From Escherichia phage REP2: a stretch of 64,000 nucleotides of DNA. Below the pieces are notes generated by a model that did no database searches, was not told the DNA's origin, and was given only the letters and a program-made list of their open reading frames with translations. Shown in pieces: positions 708 through 13,867 of this stretch; position 1 is the first letter of the stretch; each line of letters opens with the position of its first letter. The DNA is taken from the sequence record OQ174501.1; one strand, written 5' to 3'. The translations under genes were made by a program, and so were the position numbers.

Positions 708-1331
708 ATGAAAAAATATATAACTTATTTAACAATATATAGTGGAGATAAACTTCCTCCTTTTTATATTGGATCTACGTCTTTAGATAGGCATTTAGCT
801 GGATATCATGGTTCAGTTTTATCTAAAAAGTATAAGAAAATTTATAATAAAGAGCTTTCAGATAATCCTCACTTATTTGATTCATGTATTTTAGCTGAAT
901 TTGATACGCGTGAAGAAGCTATTAAATGCGAGTTATATTATCAACGATTGCATGATGCAGTTAAAAATCCATTATTCTTTAATATGTCATATGCTGCTCC
1001 AAAAGGTTCATTTGGAAGAGATAATAAAGGACAAAATCATCCATTATATGGTTCTCATAATTGTAAAGGAAATATACATTCACATGATCCATTAACAGGA
1101 AAATCTGCCTTTTTGCCTTATATTCCAGAAGGTTATGTAAAAGGAAGGTCAAATAAATTTAAAGCTTCATCACATAATAAAGGTAAAAAATGGTATAATA
1201 ACGGAGTTAAGCAAATGTTATGTCATGAACCTCCTGGTCCTGAATGGACAAAAGGAAAAATTAAAGAACTGGTTTCAAAAGCAGCTAAATTAGGATGGAA
1301 AAGACACCATGAAAATACTAAACTTGGGTGA
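708..1331 (+). CDS. putative free-standing GIY-YIG family homing endonuclease-like protein (seg-like)
   Basis: 207 aa; N-terminal YITYLTIY...FYIGST (GIY/YIG-like), downstream conserved R, E and N positions, C-terminal NUMOD-like G-x-NHPLYG and KGKKWYNNG motifs. Confidence 0.45.
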   Translation: MKKYITYLTIYSGDKLPPFYIGSTSLDRHLAGYHGSVLSKKYKKIYNKELSDNPHLFDSCILAEFDTREEAIKCELYYQRLHDAVKNPLFFNMSYAAPKGSFGRDNKGQNHPLYGSHNCKGNIHSHDPLTGKSAFLPYIPEGYVKGRSNKFKASSHNKGKKWYNNGVKQMLCHEPPGPEWTKGKIKELVSKAAKLGWKRHHENTKLG

Positions 1332-2775: not shown

Positions 2776-4460
2776 AGAATTTTAAACTAAACCGAGTTAG
2801 GTATCAAAATATAATGTCAGTAGGTGGAAATCCTATTGACATTCAATTAGATAAGGTTCAAAAAACTCTTATTACTGGACGAAATGGCGGTGGTAAGTCT
2901 ACTATGTTAGAAGCCATCACATTTGGGCTTTTTGGCAAGCCATTTCGTGATGTAAAGAAAGGTCAATTAATAAACAGCACAAATAAGAAAGAACTTTTAG
3001 TTGAACTGTGGATGGAATATGATGAGAAAAAGTACTATATCAAAAGAGGACAAAAACCAAACGTTTTCGAAATCACCGTTAACGGTACACGTCTTAATGA
3101 ATCTGCCAGCAGTAAAGATTTCCAAGCAGAATTTGAACAGCTTATCGGAATGTCATATGCCAGTTTCAAGCAGATTGTTGTCCTTGGTACAGCAGGGTAT
3201 ACCCCTTTCATGGGTTTGTCGACCCCTGCGCGAAGAAAGCTTGTGGAAGACCTGCTTGAGGTAGGAACATTAGCTGAAATGGATAAGCTTAATAAAGCAC
3301 TAATACGTGAATTAAATTCGCAGAACCAAGTGCTTGATGTTAAAAAAGATAGTATTATCCAACAAATTAAAATATATAATGATAACGTTGAACGCCAGAA
3401 AAAATTAACGGGTGACAACCTTACACGTCTACAAAATATGTATGATGATTTGGCAAAAGAAGCTAGAACGCTAAAATCGGAAATAGAAGAAGCTAACGAA
3501 AGATTAGTTAATATTGTTTTGGATGAAGACCCGACTGATGCATTTAATAAAATCGGTCAAGAAGCAGTTTTAATTAAATCAAAAATTGACTCGTATAATA
3601 AAGTCATTAATATGTATCACGAAGGTGGATTATGTCCAACCTGTTTGTCACAATTAAGTTCCGGTGATAAAGTTGTTTCTAAAATTAAAGATAAAGTTTC
3701 TGAATGTACGCATTCGTTTGAACAGCTTTCAACACACCGTGATAATTTAAAAGTTCTTGTTGATGAATACCGAGATAATATTAAAACTCAGCAGTCGTTG
3801 GCAAATGATATTCGCAATAAAAAGCAATCTCTAATCACGACGGTAGATAAAGCTAAAAAAGTTAAAGCAGCTATAGAAAAAGCATCTTCTGAGTTTATTG
3901 ACCATGCTGATGAAATAGCACTGCTTCAAGAAGAACTTGATAAAATTGTTAAGACAAAAACTAATTTAGTAATGGAAAAATACCACCGAGGAATTTTGAC
4001 TGATATGCTCAAAGATTCTGGTATTAAAGGTGCTATTATTAAAAAGTACATTCCATTATTTAATAAGCAGATTAACCATTATCTTAAAATAATGGAAGCG
4101 GATTATGTGTTTACATTAGATGAAGAATTTAATGAGACAATTAAATCCCGTGGTCGTGAAGATTTTAGTTATGCTTCATTCAGTCAAGGTGAAAAAGCAC
4201 GAATTGATATTGCTCTTTTATTTACTTGGCGTGATATTGCTGAAAAAGTTTCAGGTGTTAAAATAAGTTGTTTATTTCTTGATGAAGTGTATGACGGTGC
4301 ATTTGATGCTGAAGGCATTAAAAATGTAGCTAAAATTTTAGATGGTTTGAAGGATACCAACTTCTTCATAATTTCGCATAAAGACCATGATCCGCAGGAT
4401 TATGGACAGCATATTAAAATGGAAAAAGTTGGTAGATTTAGTGTTGCCACTATTAATTAA
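2772..4460 (+). CDS. 46: recombination endonuclease subunit gp46 (Rad50/SbcC-like ATPase)
   Basis: 562 aa; Walker A GRNGGGKST, long central coiled-coil, zinc-hook-like CPTC, C-terminal LFLDEV signature region; apparent GTG start. Confidence 0.9.
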   Translation: MKNFKLNRVRYQNIMSVGGNPIDIQLDKVQKTLITGRNGGGKSTMLEAITFGLFGKPFRDVKKGQLINSTNKKELLVELWMEYDEKKYYIKRGQKPNVFEITVNGTRLNESASSKDFQAEFEQLIGMSYASFKQIVVLGTAGYTPFMGLSTPARRKLVEDLLEVGTLAEMDKLNKALIRELNSQNQVLDVKKDSIIQQIKIYNDNVERQKKLTGDNLTRLQNMYDDLAKEARTLKSEIEEANERLVNIVLDEDPTDAFNKIGQEAVLIKSKIDSYNKVINMYHEGGLCPTCLSQLSSGDKVVSKIKDKVSECTHSFEQLSTHRDNLKVLVDEYRDNIKTQQSLANDIRNKKQSLITTVDKAKKVKAAIEKASSEFIDHADEIALLQEELDKIVKTKTNLVMEKYHRGILTDMLKDSGIKGAIIKKYIPLFNKQINHYLKIMEADYVFTLDEEFNETIKSRGREDFSYASFSQGEKARIDIALLFTWRDIAEKVSGVKISCLFLDEVYDGAFDAEGIKNVAKILDGLKDTNFFIISHKDHDPQDYGQHIKMEKVGRFSVATIN

Positions 4461-5170
4461 TGTTTGTGCTTACAGTTATCATTATGCCACCTTGATAAAT
4501 TTCCGAAAGTGGTAACTTTACCGCAATGGACGCAAGTACCAGTCTTTTCAGTTTTCTTGCGTCCATTTGGATTTTTCTTGCAGAAATTTCTATGCGCTGC
4601 GATAACGCATTTCTTGCCTATCATTCCGCAGAATTCGCAGGATGTTTCTTCAAGAACGATTGCTTTAAGCCCGTTTGAGATATTATTTCTGTGTTCTTTA
4701 GACATTGGTGGTCTAACTTTAGGATTAGGGTGATTTGGGCAGTTATCAAAATGCCAACGATTCATATTCCCGCTTAATCCAGACTTACCGCAATGAGGAC
4801 AAGTTAGTCTTGCTTTATTAGCTACTGCATCAGACATTTTCTTTCGTGTCTCTTGGGAGAATTCTTTGTTCTTTTCTATTTCCCAGAGTTTACGACGAAT
4901 CCAACCGAAAGTTTTATTGTTGCGTTTAGCGTATTTCGTAGAAACTGTCATCATGTTAGCAGCATAGACTAATTTTGGTTCAGAAGGATAAATTTTTACT
5001 AAAAGTTGATGAGCTACATAGTGCTCTTCTGGTGTTAAATCTACTAAGTTTGAAGCATCATCACTTCCATTTAAACAGCGCGGTATAATGTGATGAGATT
5101 CAGTATAACAATCAAGTTTTCGAGATTTAGCATTAGAGATTAACTTTTCATAAATTAGTTTATAATTCAT
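4457..5170 (-). CDS. free-standing HNH family homing endonuclease with three C-terminal CxxC zinc-finger repeats
   Basis: 237 aa on the opposite strand to all neighbours; HNH motif SHHIIPRCLNGSDDASNLVDLTPEEHYVAH; repeats CPHCG..RWHFDNC; SD AAGGAT upstream of the ATG. Confidence 0.7.
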   Translation of the reverse strand: MNYKLIYEKLISNAKSRKLDCYTESHHIIPRCLNGSDDASNLVDLTPEEHYVAHQLLVKIYPSEPKLVYAANMMTVSTKYAKRNNKTFGWIRRKLWEIEKNKEFSQETRKKMSDAVANKARLTCPHCGKSGLSGNMNRWHFDNCPNHPNPKVRPPMSKEHRNNISNGLKAIVLEETSCEFCGMIGKKCVIAAHRNFCKKNPNGRKKTEKTGTCVHCGKVTTFGNLSRWHNDNCKHKH

Positions 5171-5221
5171 AATATATCCTTTTGATACAGCGAGTGATAA
5201 ACATATTTATACGGAGGAACT

Positions 5222-5413
5222 GTGGCAGAATATTCAACTGGACAGCATCTATTAACTATTCCTGAAATAAAACGATATATTCTGAGAAATAATTTTTCTA
5301 ATGAAGAGCATATAGTTACTGAATCTATGCTTAGGAATGCATTTAAAGCAGAATATACAAAAATAATGTCCAATAGAAATGAAGCTTGGACTGTTACTGA
5401 TTATTATGACTAA
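5222..5413 (+). CDS. hypothetical small early protein
   Basis: 63 aa ORF with GGAGGA SD and GTG start. Confidence 0.4.
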   Translation: MAEYSTGQHLLTIPEIKRYILRNNFSNEEHIVTESMLRNAFKAEYTKIMSNRNEAWTVTDYYD

Positions 5414-5422
5414 AGGTGTATT

Positions 5423-5812
5423 ATGACTAAAATTACTGTGAATTATACTGTTGATGTAAAAGATATTCAGCCAAAACACGTGCGTTCTGACTCAAATCCG
5501 CAAAACCAAAATAAAATTCGTCGAGCATGGGTTTTGTCTCTTTCTGATAACGCAATGGAAGTTATTCAGAATAAAATTAAATCTGCACCTGCTCGTCATG
5601 CGTATTATGAAGCTATCGATCGTGAAGTAAGTAATAAATGGATTGAACTAATGCGCAAACATACTACAGAATCCCTAAACGCCGGTGCTAAATTTATTAT
5701 GACTTCATGTGGTGAACGCCTTGAAGATGAATATTGCGGTAATGCAGATGAACGTCTAATTGTTGCTGCTCAAATTGTTGCCGAAACAATCGCAGCTGAT
5801 TTTAATCGTTAA
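5423..5812 (+). CDS. rpbA: RNA polymerase binding protein RpbA
   Basis: 129 aa ORF between genes 46 and 45, same size and position as T4 rpbA. Confidence 0.55.
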
Positions 5813-5838
5813 TTGCTTTATTTAATTAGTTATAAAAT
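5811..5838 (+). promoter_or_regulatory. middle-mode promoter for gene 45 (MotA box plus -10)
   Basis: aaTTGCTTTA MotA-box match at 5811-5820 followed about 11 nt later by TATAAA. Confidence 0.45.
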
Positions 5839-5867
5839 TAAATCTCATTTGAATTGAAGGAAATTAC

Positions 5868-6554
5868 ATGAAACTGTCTAAAGATACTACTGCTCTGCTG
5901 AAAAATTTCGCTACTATTAACTCTGGTATTATGCTTAAATCCGGTCAATTTATTATGACTCGTGCGGTTAATGGTACAACTTATGCAGAAGCGAATATTT
6001 CTGACGTTATTGATTTTGATGTAGCAATTTACGATTTGAACGGTTTTCTCGGTATTCTGTCTCTAGTTAATGATGATGCAGAAATTTCCCAGTCAGAAGA
6101 TGGTAATATTAAAATTGCTGATGCTCGTTCAACAATTTTTTGGCCAGCAGCCGATCCGAGTACAGTAGTTGCTCCTAATAAACCAATTCCATTCCCGGTA
6201 GCATCTGTTGTTACTGAAATTAAAGCTGAAGACCTTCAACAACTGTTGCGTGTATCTCGTGGTCTGCAAATTGATACAATTGCTATCACGGTAAAAGAAG
6301 GTAAAATCGTAATTAACGGTTTTAATAAAGTAGAAGATTCTGCTCTGACCCGTGTTAAATATTCTTTGACTCTTGGTGATTATGATGGTGAAAATACATT
6401 TAATTTTATTATCAATATGGCAAATATGAAAATGCAACCAGGAAATTATAAACTTCTGCTCTGGGCAAAAGGTAAACAAGGTGCTGCTAAATTTGAAGGT
6501 GAACACGCGAATTATGTAGTAGCTCTTGAAGCTGATTCTACCCACGATTTTTAA
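5868..6554 (+). CDS. 45: sliding clamp gp45
   Basis: 228 aa; position upstream of 44/62; matches T4 gp45 size. Confidence 0.9.
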   Translation: MKLSKDTTALLKNFATINSGIMLKSGQFIMTRAVNGTTYAEANISDVIDFDVAIYDLNGFLGILSLVNDDAEISQSEDGNIKIADARSTIFWPAADPSTVVAPNKPIPFPVASVVTEIKAEDLQQLLRVSRGLQIDTIAITVKEGKIVINGFNKVEDSALTRVKYSLTLGDYDGENTFNFIINMANMKMQPGNYKLLLWAKGKQGAAKFEGEHANYVVALEADSTHDF

Positions 6555-12495: not shown

Positions 12496-13236
12496 ATGAT
12501 TAGTGACTCTATGACAGTTGAAGAAATCCGTCTTCATTTGGGGCTTGCATTAAAAGAAAAAGATTTCGTAGTTGATAAAACTGGCGTTAAAACTATTGAA
12601 ATTATTGGCGCATCATTTATAGCAGATGAACCGTTTATTTTTGGCGCTCTTAATGATGAATACATTCAGCGTGAACTTGAATGGTATAAATCTAAGAGCT
12701 TGTTCGTTAAAGATATTCCGGGTGAAACACCGAAGATTTGGCAACAAGTAGCATCTTCTAAAGGTGAAATTAACTCGAATTATGGCTGGGCTATCTGGTC
12801 AGAAGATAACTATGCCCAGTATGATATGTGTTTAGCTGAACTTGGTCAAAATCCTGATTCTCGACGTGGTATCATGATTTATACTCGTCCATCCATGCAA
12901 TTTGACTACAATAAAGATGGTATGTCAGATTTCATGTGTACTAATACAGTACAGTACCTGATTCGTGATAAGAAAGTCAATGCGGTTGTTAGCATGAGAA
13001 GCAATGATTGCTGGGCAGGCTATCGTAATGATTATGCTTGGCAAAAATACGTACTAGATAAATTAGTATCTGATTTGAATGCAGGCGACCCATCGCGGCA
13101 ATATAAAGCAGGTTCTATTATATGGAACGTTGGAAGTCTTCATGTGTACGAAAATCAGTTTTATTTAGTTGACCATTGGTGGAACACCGGTGAGACTCAT
13201 ATTGCTAAAAAGGATTATACTGGAAAATGGAAGTAA
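12496..13236 (+). CDS. 42: dCMP hydroxymethylase gp42
   Basis: 246 aa; thymidylate-synthase-like fold signatures; T4 synteny and size. Confidence 0.9.
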   Translation: MISDSMTVEEIRLHLGLALKEKDFVVDKTGVKTIEIIGASFIADEPFIFGALNDEYIQRELEWYKSKSLFVKDIPGETPKIWQQVASSKGEINSNYGWAIWSEDNYAQYDMCLAELGQNPDSRRGIMIYTRPSMQFDYNKDGMSDFMCTNTVQYLIRDKKVNAVVSMRSNDCWAGYRNDYAWQKYVLDKLVSDLNAGDPSRQYKAGSIIWNVGSLHVYENQFYLVDHWWNTGETHIAKKDYTGKWK

Positions 13237-13867
13237 ATGTGCCACATGTTTATAAGTATAAACATCCTAAAACTAAAAAGTGGTATATAGGAAGTCATGA
13301 TGGTCACAACCCGAATTATGATGGTTCGGGTGTAGTTTGGCAACATGCTAAAAAGAAATATGGAATAAAATCCTTTAATAAAGAAATATTATATGAAGGA
13401 CCAATGTTTAGACAGGTTGAAGAAATTATTTTAACTTGTTTAGATGCTGCTAATTGTCCGGATTCATATAATTTAAAGAATGAAGCATGGGGAGGAAGTT
13501 TTCCAGGCAAATTAAATGGAATGTACGGTAAAAACTATCTCCAGAAGAAAGATATAAGTGCGGAAATGCCTTTCGTGGAATCAAGCGTCCTGATCATTCT
13601 AAAAGAATGAAAGGCGAAGGTAATCCAATGTATGGTAAAAATGAGCAGGCATATGGAATTATAAATCGAGCCAAGGAAAATTCTGGTAAAACTTATGAAG
13701 AAATTTTTGGCGTAGAAAAAGCTAAAATAATTAAAGAAACGATGTCTAAAAATCGTAAAGGAAAACCTCATAATTTGATAGAAAAAATATGTCCGCATTG
13801 CGGACTAAAAGGACGTGGGCCAAATATGACAAGATACCATTTTGACAAATGTAAGGCACTTAAATGA
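13227..13867 (+). pseudogene. GIY-YIG homing endonuclease (seg-like) interrupted by a frameshift (frame 0 13227-13610, frame +2 13532-13867)
   Basis: N-terminal VYKYKHPKTKKWYIGS GIY-YIG motif; NUMOD-like GMYGKN / GNPMYGKN repeats continue across a frame change at the A5 run 13530-13534; C-terminal CPHCG..RYHFDKC zinc finger. Confidence 0.6.

Follow-up and report, generated by a model that had tools for sequence, protein, structure and literature searches.

The open reading frame (ORF) that runs antisense to its neighbours at positions 4457–5170 of the window, i.e. the whole stretch of 64,000 nucleotides analyzed here, is best explained as a free-standing homing endonuclease gene (HEG) of the T4 Mob (HNH) family, carried on a cassette of ~0.78 kb at the Tequatrovirus 46/45.2 junction and propagated by the mechanism proposed below; we assign this reading a probability of roughly 78%. 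The gene itself is already known, as GenBank has called it a homing endonuclease since the RB32 genome (RB32ORF054w). One more Mob-type homing endonuclease has little significance beyond book-keeping; the modest added value lies in a clean natural data set for a Mob enzyme, with its boundaries, a linked allele and empty sites in several genera, together with a second, unrelated HEG at the junction and a conserved candidate late promoter for an antisense HEG. Such a data set would ease experimental testing of nicking, target choice and marker exclusion.

Position of the gene and architecture of its product

The ORF starts with ATG and encodes 237 amino acids, the stop codon being included in the coordinates; the other antisense ORFs in the first 12 kb are all 138 amino acids or shorter. 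Coding strands were taken from the annotation of REP3 (Tequatrovirus), to which the window is 100% identical, and there the HEG is the sole opposite-strand coding sequence from record position 100432 to beyond 125000, equivalent to window positions ~1–20400. The description of the ORF in the initial annotation as the only minus-strand gene in ~20 kb thus holds. The locus had also been labelled as the interval between gene 46 and rpbA, of which the gene 46 side is correct, but on the ATG side the neighbour is gene 45.2 (5222–5413; Pfam Gp45_2, E = 5e-36), and rpbA (5423–5812) lies one gene beyond it. The HEG is intergenic, between the stop codon of gene 46 and the start of 45.2, and its own stop codon overlaps that of gene 46 within the palindrome TTAA (4457–4460). 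A search of positions 3500–6500 against Rfam returned no intron and no other RNA family, the RAGATH-8 match at 4527–4565 being noise (21.5 bits against a cut-off of 86.7); judging from its sequence, the gene is not intron-borne. The gene and the predicted parts of its product are arranged as follows:

4457..5170, minus strand: free-standing Mob-like HNH homing endonuclease gene (PHROG 655 and GenBank annotations; WCA46101.1 in REP3; orthologue of RB32ORF054w)
4871..5170, minus strand: N-terminal HNH (beta-beta-alpha-metal) nuclease domain, residues 1–100, core residues 24–60
4739..4864, minus strand: NUMOD3-like helix (residues 103–117) and predicted zinc knuckle 1 (C124, C127, H140, C144), from invariant ligands and the AF2 model
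4580..4708, minus strand: second NUMOD3-like helix (residues 155–169) and predicted zinc knuckle 2 (C178, C181, H193, C197), from invariant ligands and the AF2 model
4472..4543, minus strand: predicted zinc knuckle 3 (C213, C216, H229, C233), from invariant ligands, the AF2 model and homology to I-TevIII

The HNH motif noted in the initial annotation, TESHHIIPRCLNGSDDASNLVDLTPEEHYVAHQ, is upheld by conservation, as residues H26, H27, N41, H50 and H54 are invariant in eight orthologues and also in 45 homologues with identities as low as 35%. Pfam HNH (PF01844) matches the protein under its gathering cut-off (17.0 against 21.4 bits, E = 0.0069), which reflects the limited sensitivity of so short a model and is not counter-evidence to the fold, and the HNH region of NCBIfam IscB matches with E = 3.7e-5, far under the whole-protein cut-off of that model. 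A single-sequence search against PDB chains gave best matches of only E = 0.17–0.29. The profile of the orthologue alignment reached the HNH domain of a group II intron maturase (6me0) with E = 0.005; the HNH domains of this maturase and of McrA (6ghc) can be aligned with the motif at every residue. The AF2 model, with an overall pLDDT of 91.6, combines a single beta-beta-alpha core in the HNH domain with three knuckles that are likewise beta-beta-alpha; the core is built from strands 24–27 and 42–45 and helix 47–60, with a pLDDT of ~96. Sequence and model together contain the elements that define the HNH superfamily: the general-base His, the structural Asn, the distal His/Asn metal ligand and, as predicted, the beta-beta-alpha fold.

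The three CxxC-type zinc fingers reported earlier for the C-terminal region can be refined to knuckles of the form C-x2-C-x12-H-x3-C, on the basis of their invariant ligands. All 12 Cys/His residues are conserved in an orthologue alignment spanning five phage groups, and those of knuckle 3 do not change even across the 45 distant homologues. In the AF2 model, knuckle 1 forms a beta-beta-alpha unit at 121–140, the part around knuckle 2 comprises helix 158–169, strands 175–177 and 184–186 and helix 187–196, and knuckle 3 comprises strands 210–212 and 219–221 and helix 222–232. Pfam NUMOD3 (PF07460) matches residues 103–115 weakly (12.6 bits against a cut-off of 20.4, E = 0.13), and most homologues of 33–45% identity have a precomputed match to the same family. 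The sub-threshold scores of Pfam HNH and NUMOD3 count among the points against our preferred explanation. The tandem arrangement is that of a predicted zinc-knuckle module of the I-TevIII type: residues 174–234, which include the last two knuckles, are homologous to the C-terminus of I-TevIII (38% identity, E = 1e-8, BLASTP with the T4 remnant), and PHROGs 27406 and 12324 match residues 165–236. I-TevIII is encoded within the group I intron of nrdB, active in RB3 and truncated in T4, whereas the HEG is free-standing and has a third knuckle.

Affiliation with the Mob/HNH family, which the initial annotation put forward for checking, is borne out by matches to PHROG 655 (‘homing endonuclease’, E = 1.5e-68), to T4 MobB and to the mobE region. 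T4 MobB, encoded between a-gt and a-gt.2, is 44% identical over the N-terminal 126 residues (E = 7e-30), whereas the C-terminal halves are unrelated; homology restricted to the N-terminus fits the rule that MobA–E have the HNH domain in common and each a DNA-binding domain of its own (PMC2790892). A review lists no known activity or target for MobB (PMC2988022). T4 MobE is ~35% identical over the full length (mobE region) and resembles the HEG in its N-terminal HNH domain, C-terminal DNA-binding region, intergenic location and polymorphism in T-even phages. MobE is free-standing between nrdA and nrdB and makes an HNH-dependent, strand-specific nick in T2 nrdB, with homing and co-conversion of the flanks; mobE points the same way as the genes around it and, lacking a separate promoter, relies on upstream transcription (PMC2790892). 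In contrast, the HEG runs against its neighbours behind a candidate late promoter of its own, and it differs from mobE in insertion site and predicted target gene.

The closest relatives are RB32ORF054w, RB51ORF057 and the ‘homing endonuclease’ coding sequences of ~59 Tequatrovirus records, all of them versions of this gene at this site, with 99% identity of the protein and 97.5–98.9% identity over the 2-kb region. The RB32 annotation describes the gene as a ‘putative site-specific intron-like DNA endonuclease, similar to mobB’. REP3 and RB51 deviate slightly at the C-terminus of the HEG protein (..CKHKH-stop versus ..CKYKPS-stop) and also in the last five gp46 codons. In the literature we found no published experimental characterization of RB32ORF054w, RB51ORF057 or their orthologues.

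Cassette boundaries and the linked allele of gene 46

Comparison with T4 and T2 delineates two adjoining elements, the cassette and the divergent stretch of gene 46 that accompanies it:

4445..5227, no strand: whole cassette relative to T4, 783 bp replacing 68 bp of T4
4267..4444, plus strand: HEG-linked divergent allele of the gene 46 3′ end (presumed co-converted flank), 20 fixed differences

BLAST homology to T4 breaks sharply at 4444 and 5228, and the 68 bp of T4 that are replaced comprise the last codons of gene 46, a 55-bp spacer and the start of 45.2. With the cassette in place, gp46 ends in ...FSVATIN-stop, as against ...FTVMV-stop in T4, and 45.2 begins with GTG-GCA-GAA, as against ATG-GAA. 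In T4, T2, wV7, ECO4, CrRp10, EC121 and ime09 the site is empty and holds only the 46–45.2 spacer of 55–56 bp; the spacer is conserved and contains a predicted middle promoter, both of which the cassette replaces. Among the 590 matching records of the GenBank phage collection the insert is present in 59, and in ~450 Tequatrovirus records the site is shorter by 715 bp. The reading of the ORF as a mobile insertion, already advanced in the initial annotation, is sustained by these empty sites, the fraction of carriers and the sharp breakpoints; the gene is not universally present at this locus in Tequatrovirus, Mosigvirus or Slopekvirus. Scans of IMG/VR returned no close copy of the HEG (best match 64%) and only six 45.2 loci, so that the population analysis rests on the GenBank phage collection. 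At the left junction, TGCTTAC resembles the MotA box found in the spacer of empty sites, but the heptamer lies within the HEG coding sequence, and we treat the likeness as chance.

Upstream of the cassette, the part of gene 46 between 3900 and ~4140 shows 100% identity with both T4 and T2. The first differences appear at 4140–4180, and identity is only 58–85% in the interval 4260–4444, which gives a divergent tract of ~190 bp. The 20 fixed differences in the gene 46 3′ end separate five HEG+ from seven HEG– genomes. In the phage collection, the allele at 4267–4444 is found in 59 records with at least 92.8% identity, the next best match being 81% with no intermediates, and this record count equals that of the HEG. 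SYGD1 has the linked allele and no annotated HEG, yet there is a gap of 760 bp at the site. The linkage provides an indirect, sequence-level indication that the flank was co-converted with the cassette. Some of these differences may have nothing to do with the HEG, because the empty alleles of T4 type and T2 type are likewise distinct from one another in this part of gene 46. The HEG-linked tract also varies in extent, from ~190 bp in Tequatrovirus to ~80 nt in Slopekvirus and only ~40 nt in Mosigvirus, which makes the predicted target position uncertain and is a further point against our preferred explanation. Six fixed differences cluster at the Walker-B codons of gene 46 (~4265–4300); a target at these codons was downgraded, because gene 46 of HEG+ and HEG– Mosigvirus phages differs in the last ~40 nt only.

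Candidate expression signals and orthologues at the same junction

Two candidate signals precede the coding sequence of the HEG:

5204..5211, minus strand: candidate T4-type late promoter box TATAAATA, 33 nt upstream of the ATG, matching the T4 late-promoter consensus
5177..5181, minus strand: Shine-Dalgarno-like AAGGA, 6 nt before the ATG, read from the sequence

Counting both strands, the 64-kb window contains the exact late box only five times, the copy before the HEG included, and the box occupies the same position in RB32, RB51, MHG19, ST0 and the IMG/VR locus L004. At this position EBPL and KpCCP1 have CTAAATA/TTAAATA, and the box is degenerate in the Slopekvirus and Pseudotevenvirus orthologues. 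That the box would function as a late promoter is inferred from its match to the T4 consensus, and this reliance on a consensus match and the degeneracy both count against our preferred explanation. AAGGA is also present in the closer orthologues MHG19, ST0 and L004, and the distant EBPL, KpCCP1, L005 and L006 have only partial purine-rich variants, e.g. CAGGA or AAGAGA. The leader between the late box and the ATG is conserved and folds no better than shuffled sequences (z = –1.19). Inside the cassette, a replacement sigma-70 or middle promoter for 45.2 was not found, the number of sites not exceeding that in shuffled sequence. The antisense placement has a precedent in T4 segD (GIY-YIG, genes 23/24), the only T4 HEG that opposes its neighbours, for which no specific promoter was found (PMC2988022); segD belongs to another nuclease family, and the HEG, unlike segD, has a conserved candidate late-promoter box.

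Orthologues with 42–64% identity lie antisense at the 46/45.2 junction in Mosigvirus and Slopekvirus and are polymorphic there as well. The Mosigvirus junction carries the HEG in 14 cases and is empty in most others, and the Slopekvirus junction either has the HEG, is empty or is occupied by a different HEG. Further orthologues at this junction are found in Pseudotevenvirus (EBPL) and in phage MHG19. Phage Matisse has a different HNH HEG in the opposite orientation at the 46/45.2 junction, suggesting that the junction is a hot spot for insertion.

Proposed homing mechanism and competing explanations

In the mechanism we propose, the HEG would be transcribed against the surrounding early and middle genes from its own late promoter, so that the enzyme would be made late in infection, at a time when the genomes of co-infecting phages have already been replicated. 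By analogy with MobE and I-TevIII, the NUMOD3-like helices and the three CCHC knuckles would bind an extended DNA site in phages that lack the cassette, most probably the gene 46 end and the 46–45.2 spacer, which the cassette itself replaces, and the N-terminal HNH domain would then nick or cut near the bound site. Recombinational repair would copy the cassette together with the adjacent gene 46 3′ end and the first 45.2 codons from the HEG+ genome, a step whose footprint we see in the distinct allele of gene 46 that is completely linked to the HEG. In mixed infections, the 46/45.2 region of the HEG+ parent would be expected to be inherited preferentially, i.e. by localized marker exclusion.

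The alternative that fares best, although we consider it unlikely, is that the HEG is a decaying or inactive remnant that neither cuts nor homes and may be kept only because its neighbours now need sequence within the cassette: gene 46 for its end, and 45.2 for its start codon and ribosome-binding site. Defunct HEGs are numerous in phages, T4 I-TevIII among them, and retention of HEGs through embedded signals is described in a review (PMC2988022); as the cassette replaced the spacer with its predicted promoter and rewrote both flanking gene ends, its simple deletion could be harmful. However, the ORF is full length in HEG+ records, with 55 of the 59 closest tblastn matches at least 99% identical, and the catalytic residues and zinc ligands are invariant. 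Four comparisons among HEG+ phages gave 6:1, 18:3, 12:0 and 16:2 synonymous versus non-synonymous changes (52:6 in sum), so that, as far as the sequence can tell, the HEG looks functional. A site that is polymorphic in at least three genera also argues for continuing spread.

About half as probable, in our estimate, is that the HEG is kept mainly because it benefits the phage, by interference with relatives or by recombination or amplification near replication genes, with homing being secondary. In at least five phage groups the lineage of the HEG has kept to a single junction, and recent work has assigned such roles to phage HEGs: SegB is described as promoting the amplification of anti-defence loci (PMC13096335), and nuclease genes are described at the boundaries of inter-phage genetic exchange (PMC10055350). 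Yet carriers make up only ~10% of Tequatrovirus and Mosigvirus records, which is unexpected for a strongly beneficial gene, and at the locus PADLOC gives a generic ‘HEase’ match only, with nothing pointing to a partner or cargo gene. Least probable is an ancestral T-even gene deleted in most relatives, including T4, which the orthologues at one junction in five groups could suggest through ancient presence, but the empty sites share the conserved 55-bp spacer and its predicted middle promoter rather than ragged deletions, carriers are a minority in every genus examined, the protein family includes demonstrated mobile endonucleases and the different HEG of Matisse marks an insertion hot spot.

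For the mobile Mob-type HEG that we favor, a more tentative extension can be considered, to which we give perhaps one chance in a few. The 46/45.2 HEG may represent an old, site-faithful lineage across at least five T4-like groups, one that would always lie antisense behind a conserved late promoter and 5′ leader of its own and would recognize the end of gene 46 (Rad50-like); late antisense transcription and the lost middle promoter could also alter the expression of 46, 45.2 and rpbA in carriers. If so, the HEG would recognize the end of a gene whose product (gp46/47) resects the very breaks needed for homing.

The gene 46/45.2 junction and its cassette

The antisense homing endonuclease gene (HEG) lies in a region that is 100% identical, across the queried 2 kb (3900-5900), to Escherichia phage REP3 (OQ174502.1, Tequatrovirus). 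In window coordinates, the locus comprises the following features:

4457-5170, minus strand: HEG ORF, ATG start, 237 aa
2772-4460: gene 46, encoding a Rad50/SbcC-like recombination nuclease subunit, flanking HEG
5222-5413: gene 45.2, on the other flank of HEG (Pfam Gp45_2, E 5e-36)
5423-5812: rpbA, directly beyond gene 45.2
5204-5211, minus strand: exact copy of the T4 late-promoter box (TATAAATA); the HEG ATG follows 33 nt downstream

The initial annotation, which had read this ORF as an inserted HNH homing endonuclease, rested on a real observation and was essentially right. It had described a lone minus-strand ORF in a block of about 20 kb, and in the REP3 annotation HEG is indeed the sole opposite-strand CDS from record position 100432 to beyond 125000, corresponding to roughly the first 20 kb of the window. 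Its placement between gene 46 and rpbA holds on the gene 46 side, where the convergent stop codons of the two genes overlap in a TTAA palindrome (4457-4460); on the other side the neighbour is 45.2, with rpbA one gene further. The gene is already known, being annotated as 'homing endonuclease' in REP3 and dozens of relatives, back to RB32ORF054w of RB32 ('similar to mobB'), and is an ordinary representative of a well-known class.

Homology between the window and T4 ends at 4444 and restarts at 5228, so that 783 bp take the place of 68 bp in T4, where 46 and 45.2 are separated by a 55-bp spacer. A search with the 2-kb region matched 590 phage records, of which 59 have the insert; in about 450 Tequatrovirus records, including T4, T2, RB6, wV7 and AR1, the locus is 715 bp shorter. 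On this comparison, the HEG-bearing cassette (4445-5227) is an insertion. Alignment of the junction in five carriers and seven non-carriers of the cassette shows that it rewrites both adjoining gene ends: gp46 terminates in ...FSVATIN* (REP3/RB51) or ...FSLAKIS* (RB32 type) versus ...FTVMV* in non-carriers, and 45.2 begins with GTG-GCA-GAA in carriers versus ATG-GAA in non-carriers. A 1-nt indel in CrRp10 is the sole difference between the empty spacers of the seven non-carriers. The spacer contains TGCTTTA and, 12 nt further on, TATAAT, and a 'predicted middle promoter' is annotated here in the fPS-65 record. Carriers have lost this promoter to the cassette, in which a scan for a replacement gave no convincing substitute.

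REP3, T4 and T2 share the same gene 46 sequence (100% identity) between 3900 and about 4140. Scattered differences begin at 4140-4180 and become dense from about 4260, and the ~190-260 bp nearest to HEG are only 58-85% identical; 20 differences between carriers and non-carriers are fixed, at 4269-4441. Across the whole phage collection, the carrier gene 46 allele occurs at 92.8% identity or more in 59 records, the next best match being 81%, and this count equals that of records carrying HEG (one of them, SYGD1, lacks the annotation, yet has the 760-bp gap). On the right flank of the cassette, REP3 and T4 are 100% identical. Joint transfer of the cassette and the gene 46 end would leave such a pattern, with a linked allele on one side and an identical flank on the other. 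The gene 46 end is, however, variable for more than one reason, because the T4-type and T2-type alleles, both without HEG, also differ there: they are 60-82% identical in the last ~250 bp (window ~4180-4444), identical again over the last ~25 nt and through the spacer, and ~100% identical in the remainder of the gene. Past movements of HEGs, or selection favouring resistant sites, may have given rise to these two empty alleles.

Yersinia phage MHG19, Mosigvirus ST0, Pseudotevenvirus EBPL, Slopekvirus KpCCP1 and several IMG/VR contigs have orthologues (42-64% identity) at this junction, each antisense and either overlapping the gene 46 stop or adjoining it. In Mosigvirus 14 records have HEG and most others are empty; Slopekvirus junctions include carriers, empty sites (e.g. 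Miro) and a different gene, as in Klebsiella phage Matisse, where a 160-aa HNH HEG (locus L109, 1145-1627), also found in some other Slopekviruses, lies co-directional with its flanking genes at the 46/45.2-like junction. HEGs have thus inserted here independently, which marks the junction as a hot spot. Because the differences between carrier and empty gene 46 are confined to the terminal ~40 nt in Mosigvirus and ~80 nt in Slopekvirus, the target would most simply span the gene 46 end and the spacer replaced by the cassette. The same short tracts make a target at the Walker-B codons of gene 46 less likely.

Domain organization and family of the protein

The HNH motif named in the initial annotation is borne out by residues H26, H27, N41, H50 and H54, unchanged in all eight orthologues and all 45 homologues, although the Pfam HNH score is below cut-off (17.0 versus 21.4 bits). 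In a profile built from orthologues, the motif lines up with the HNH domains of McrA and of a group II intron maturase. Sequence evidence at the family level is much stronger than the Pfam score, comprising a match to PHROG 655 ('homing endonuclease', E 1.5e-68), 44% identity with T4 MobB over its N-terminal 126 residues (E 7e-30) and ~35% identity with the T4 mobE region over the full length. The last of these, a tblastn match, spans mobE and nrdB.1 as a single ~229-aa stretch, and the mobE annotation of the T4 reference (NC_000866; locus L105, 3717-4417), 141 aa followed by nrdB.1, thus appears to be split.

The three CxxC-type zinc fingers ascribed to the protein are present in its C-terminal half as C-x2-C-x12-H-x3-C units, whose Cys/His ligands are invariant in five phage groups:

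Residues 124/127/140/144: unit 1
Residues 178/181/193/197: unit 2
Residues 213/216/229/233: unit 3

A NUMOD3-type helix precedes each of units 1 and 2; Pfam NUMOD3 is weak on this protein and recorded in most homologues. Units 2 and 3 share homology with the I-TevIII C-terminus (E 1e-8), a relationship also seen in matches to PHROGs 27406 and 12324. Given 45 sequences, AlphaFold2 models the protein with confidence (mean pLDDT 91.6) and predicts a single HNH core of beta-beta-alpha type (strands 24-27 and 42-45, helix 47-60) with three beta-beta-alpha knuckles C-terminal of it. Whole-chain fold searches with the model returned nothing significant, and the compact local matches worth note were HNH domains and zinc-finger arrays only.

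Predicted expression and homing, and alternative readings

The late box, one of only five exact boxes on both strands of the 64-kb early-gene window, suggests late expression of HEG; an AAGGA lies 6 nt ahead of the start codon. The box lies at the same position in RB32, RB51, MHG19, ST0 and the IMG/VR locus L004 and is degraded to CTAAATA/TTAAATA in EBPL and KpCCP1. T4 HEGs are co-oriented with their neighbours except segD, whose promoter is not known (Edgell-Gibb-Belfort review, PMC2988022). Given this precedent, an antisense HEG with a candidate late promoter of its own is a small variation on a known arrangement. Between box and ATG, the leader (5171-5203, minus strand) holds a conserved block, TTTATC..GCTGTATCAAA..AGGA, kept in loci L100, L101, L004, L102 and L103 despite proteins only 42-64% identical; it folds no better than shuffled sequence (z = -1.19). 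The block could be a protein-binding site, e.g. for autoregulation, which is known for I-TevI, or a mere part of the cassette.

Synonymous changes outnumber non-synonymous ones among carriers (6:1, 18:3, 12:0 and 16:2), and 55 of the 59 closest tblastn matches have at least 99% protein identity, which reflects purifying selection, recent spread or both. We found no paper on the REP3 protein. In T2 nrdB, MobE nicks one specific strand in an HNH-dependent manner, and the flanks are co-converted (PMC2790892). By analogy, the most probable action of the HEG protein is to nick or cut the empty allele in a co-infecting phage, whereupon recombinational repair would copy HEG into that genome. If HEG homes in this way, the other parent's 46/45.2 markers would be locally excluded. 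That HEG is an inactive remnant, kept as the cassette supplies gene ends and signals to its neighbours, is disfavoured by its conservation pattern and by the polymorphism of the site in multiple genera. Recent studies offer precedents for a mainly beneficial role, for example in competition or in stimulating recombination, but such a role fits poorly with a carrier frequency of ~10%. Two observations contradict ancestral presence with repeated loss: the empty spacer is uniform and bears a predicted promoter, and a second, unrelated HEG lies at the same junction.

Other insertions and candidate insertions in the region

Gene 46 has HEG insertion sites on both flanks, since a ~0.85-kb insert lies between 46.1 and 46 in RB51 (L093, 1008-1872), T2 (L095, 1005-1857) and EC121 (L098, 1003-1857). 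It is annotated as a mob-like homing endonuclease in T2 (two split ORFs) and EC121 and is unannotated in RB51; neither REP3 nor T4 has it. The window has a second free-standing endonuclease-like ORF (708-1331, plus strand, 207 aa), also found in phage ECO4, which is located between a-gt and gene 47 and overlaps the gene 47 start. Its Pfam GIY-YIG score is just below cut-off (21.4 versus 22.6 bits), PHROG 10820 and GenBank list it as 'HNH endonuclease', and T4, whose homology is broken at 715-1308, has the small gene 47.1 at this position. Just past gene 42 (dCMP hydroxymethylase), a 127-aa CDS annotated 'homing endonuclease' (~13227-13610, plus strand; REP3 record 107245-107628) lies where T4 homology ends (13228), and downstream of it REP3 has a T2/T6-type beta-glucosyl-HMC-alpha-glucosyltransferase versus b-gt in T4. 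A 248-aa hypothetical ORF between rpbA and gene 45 in EC121 (L098, 4337-5083), not in REP3 or T4, may be another mobile insertion.
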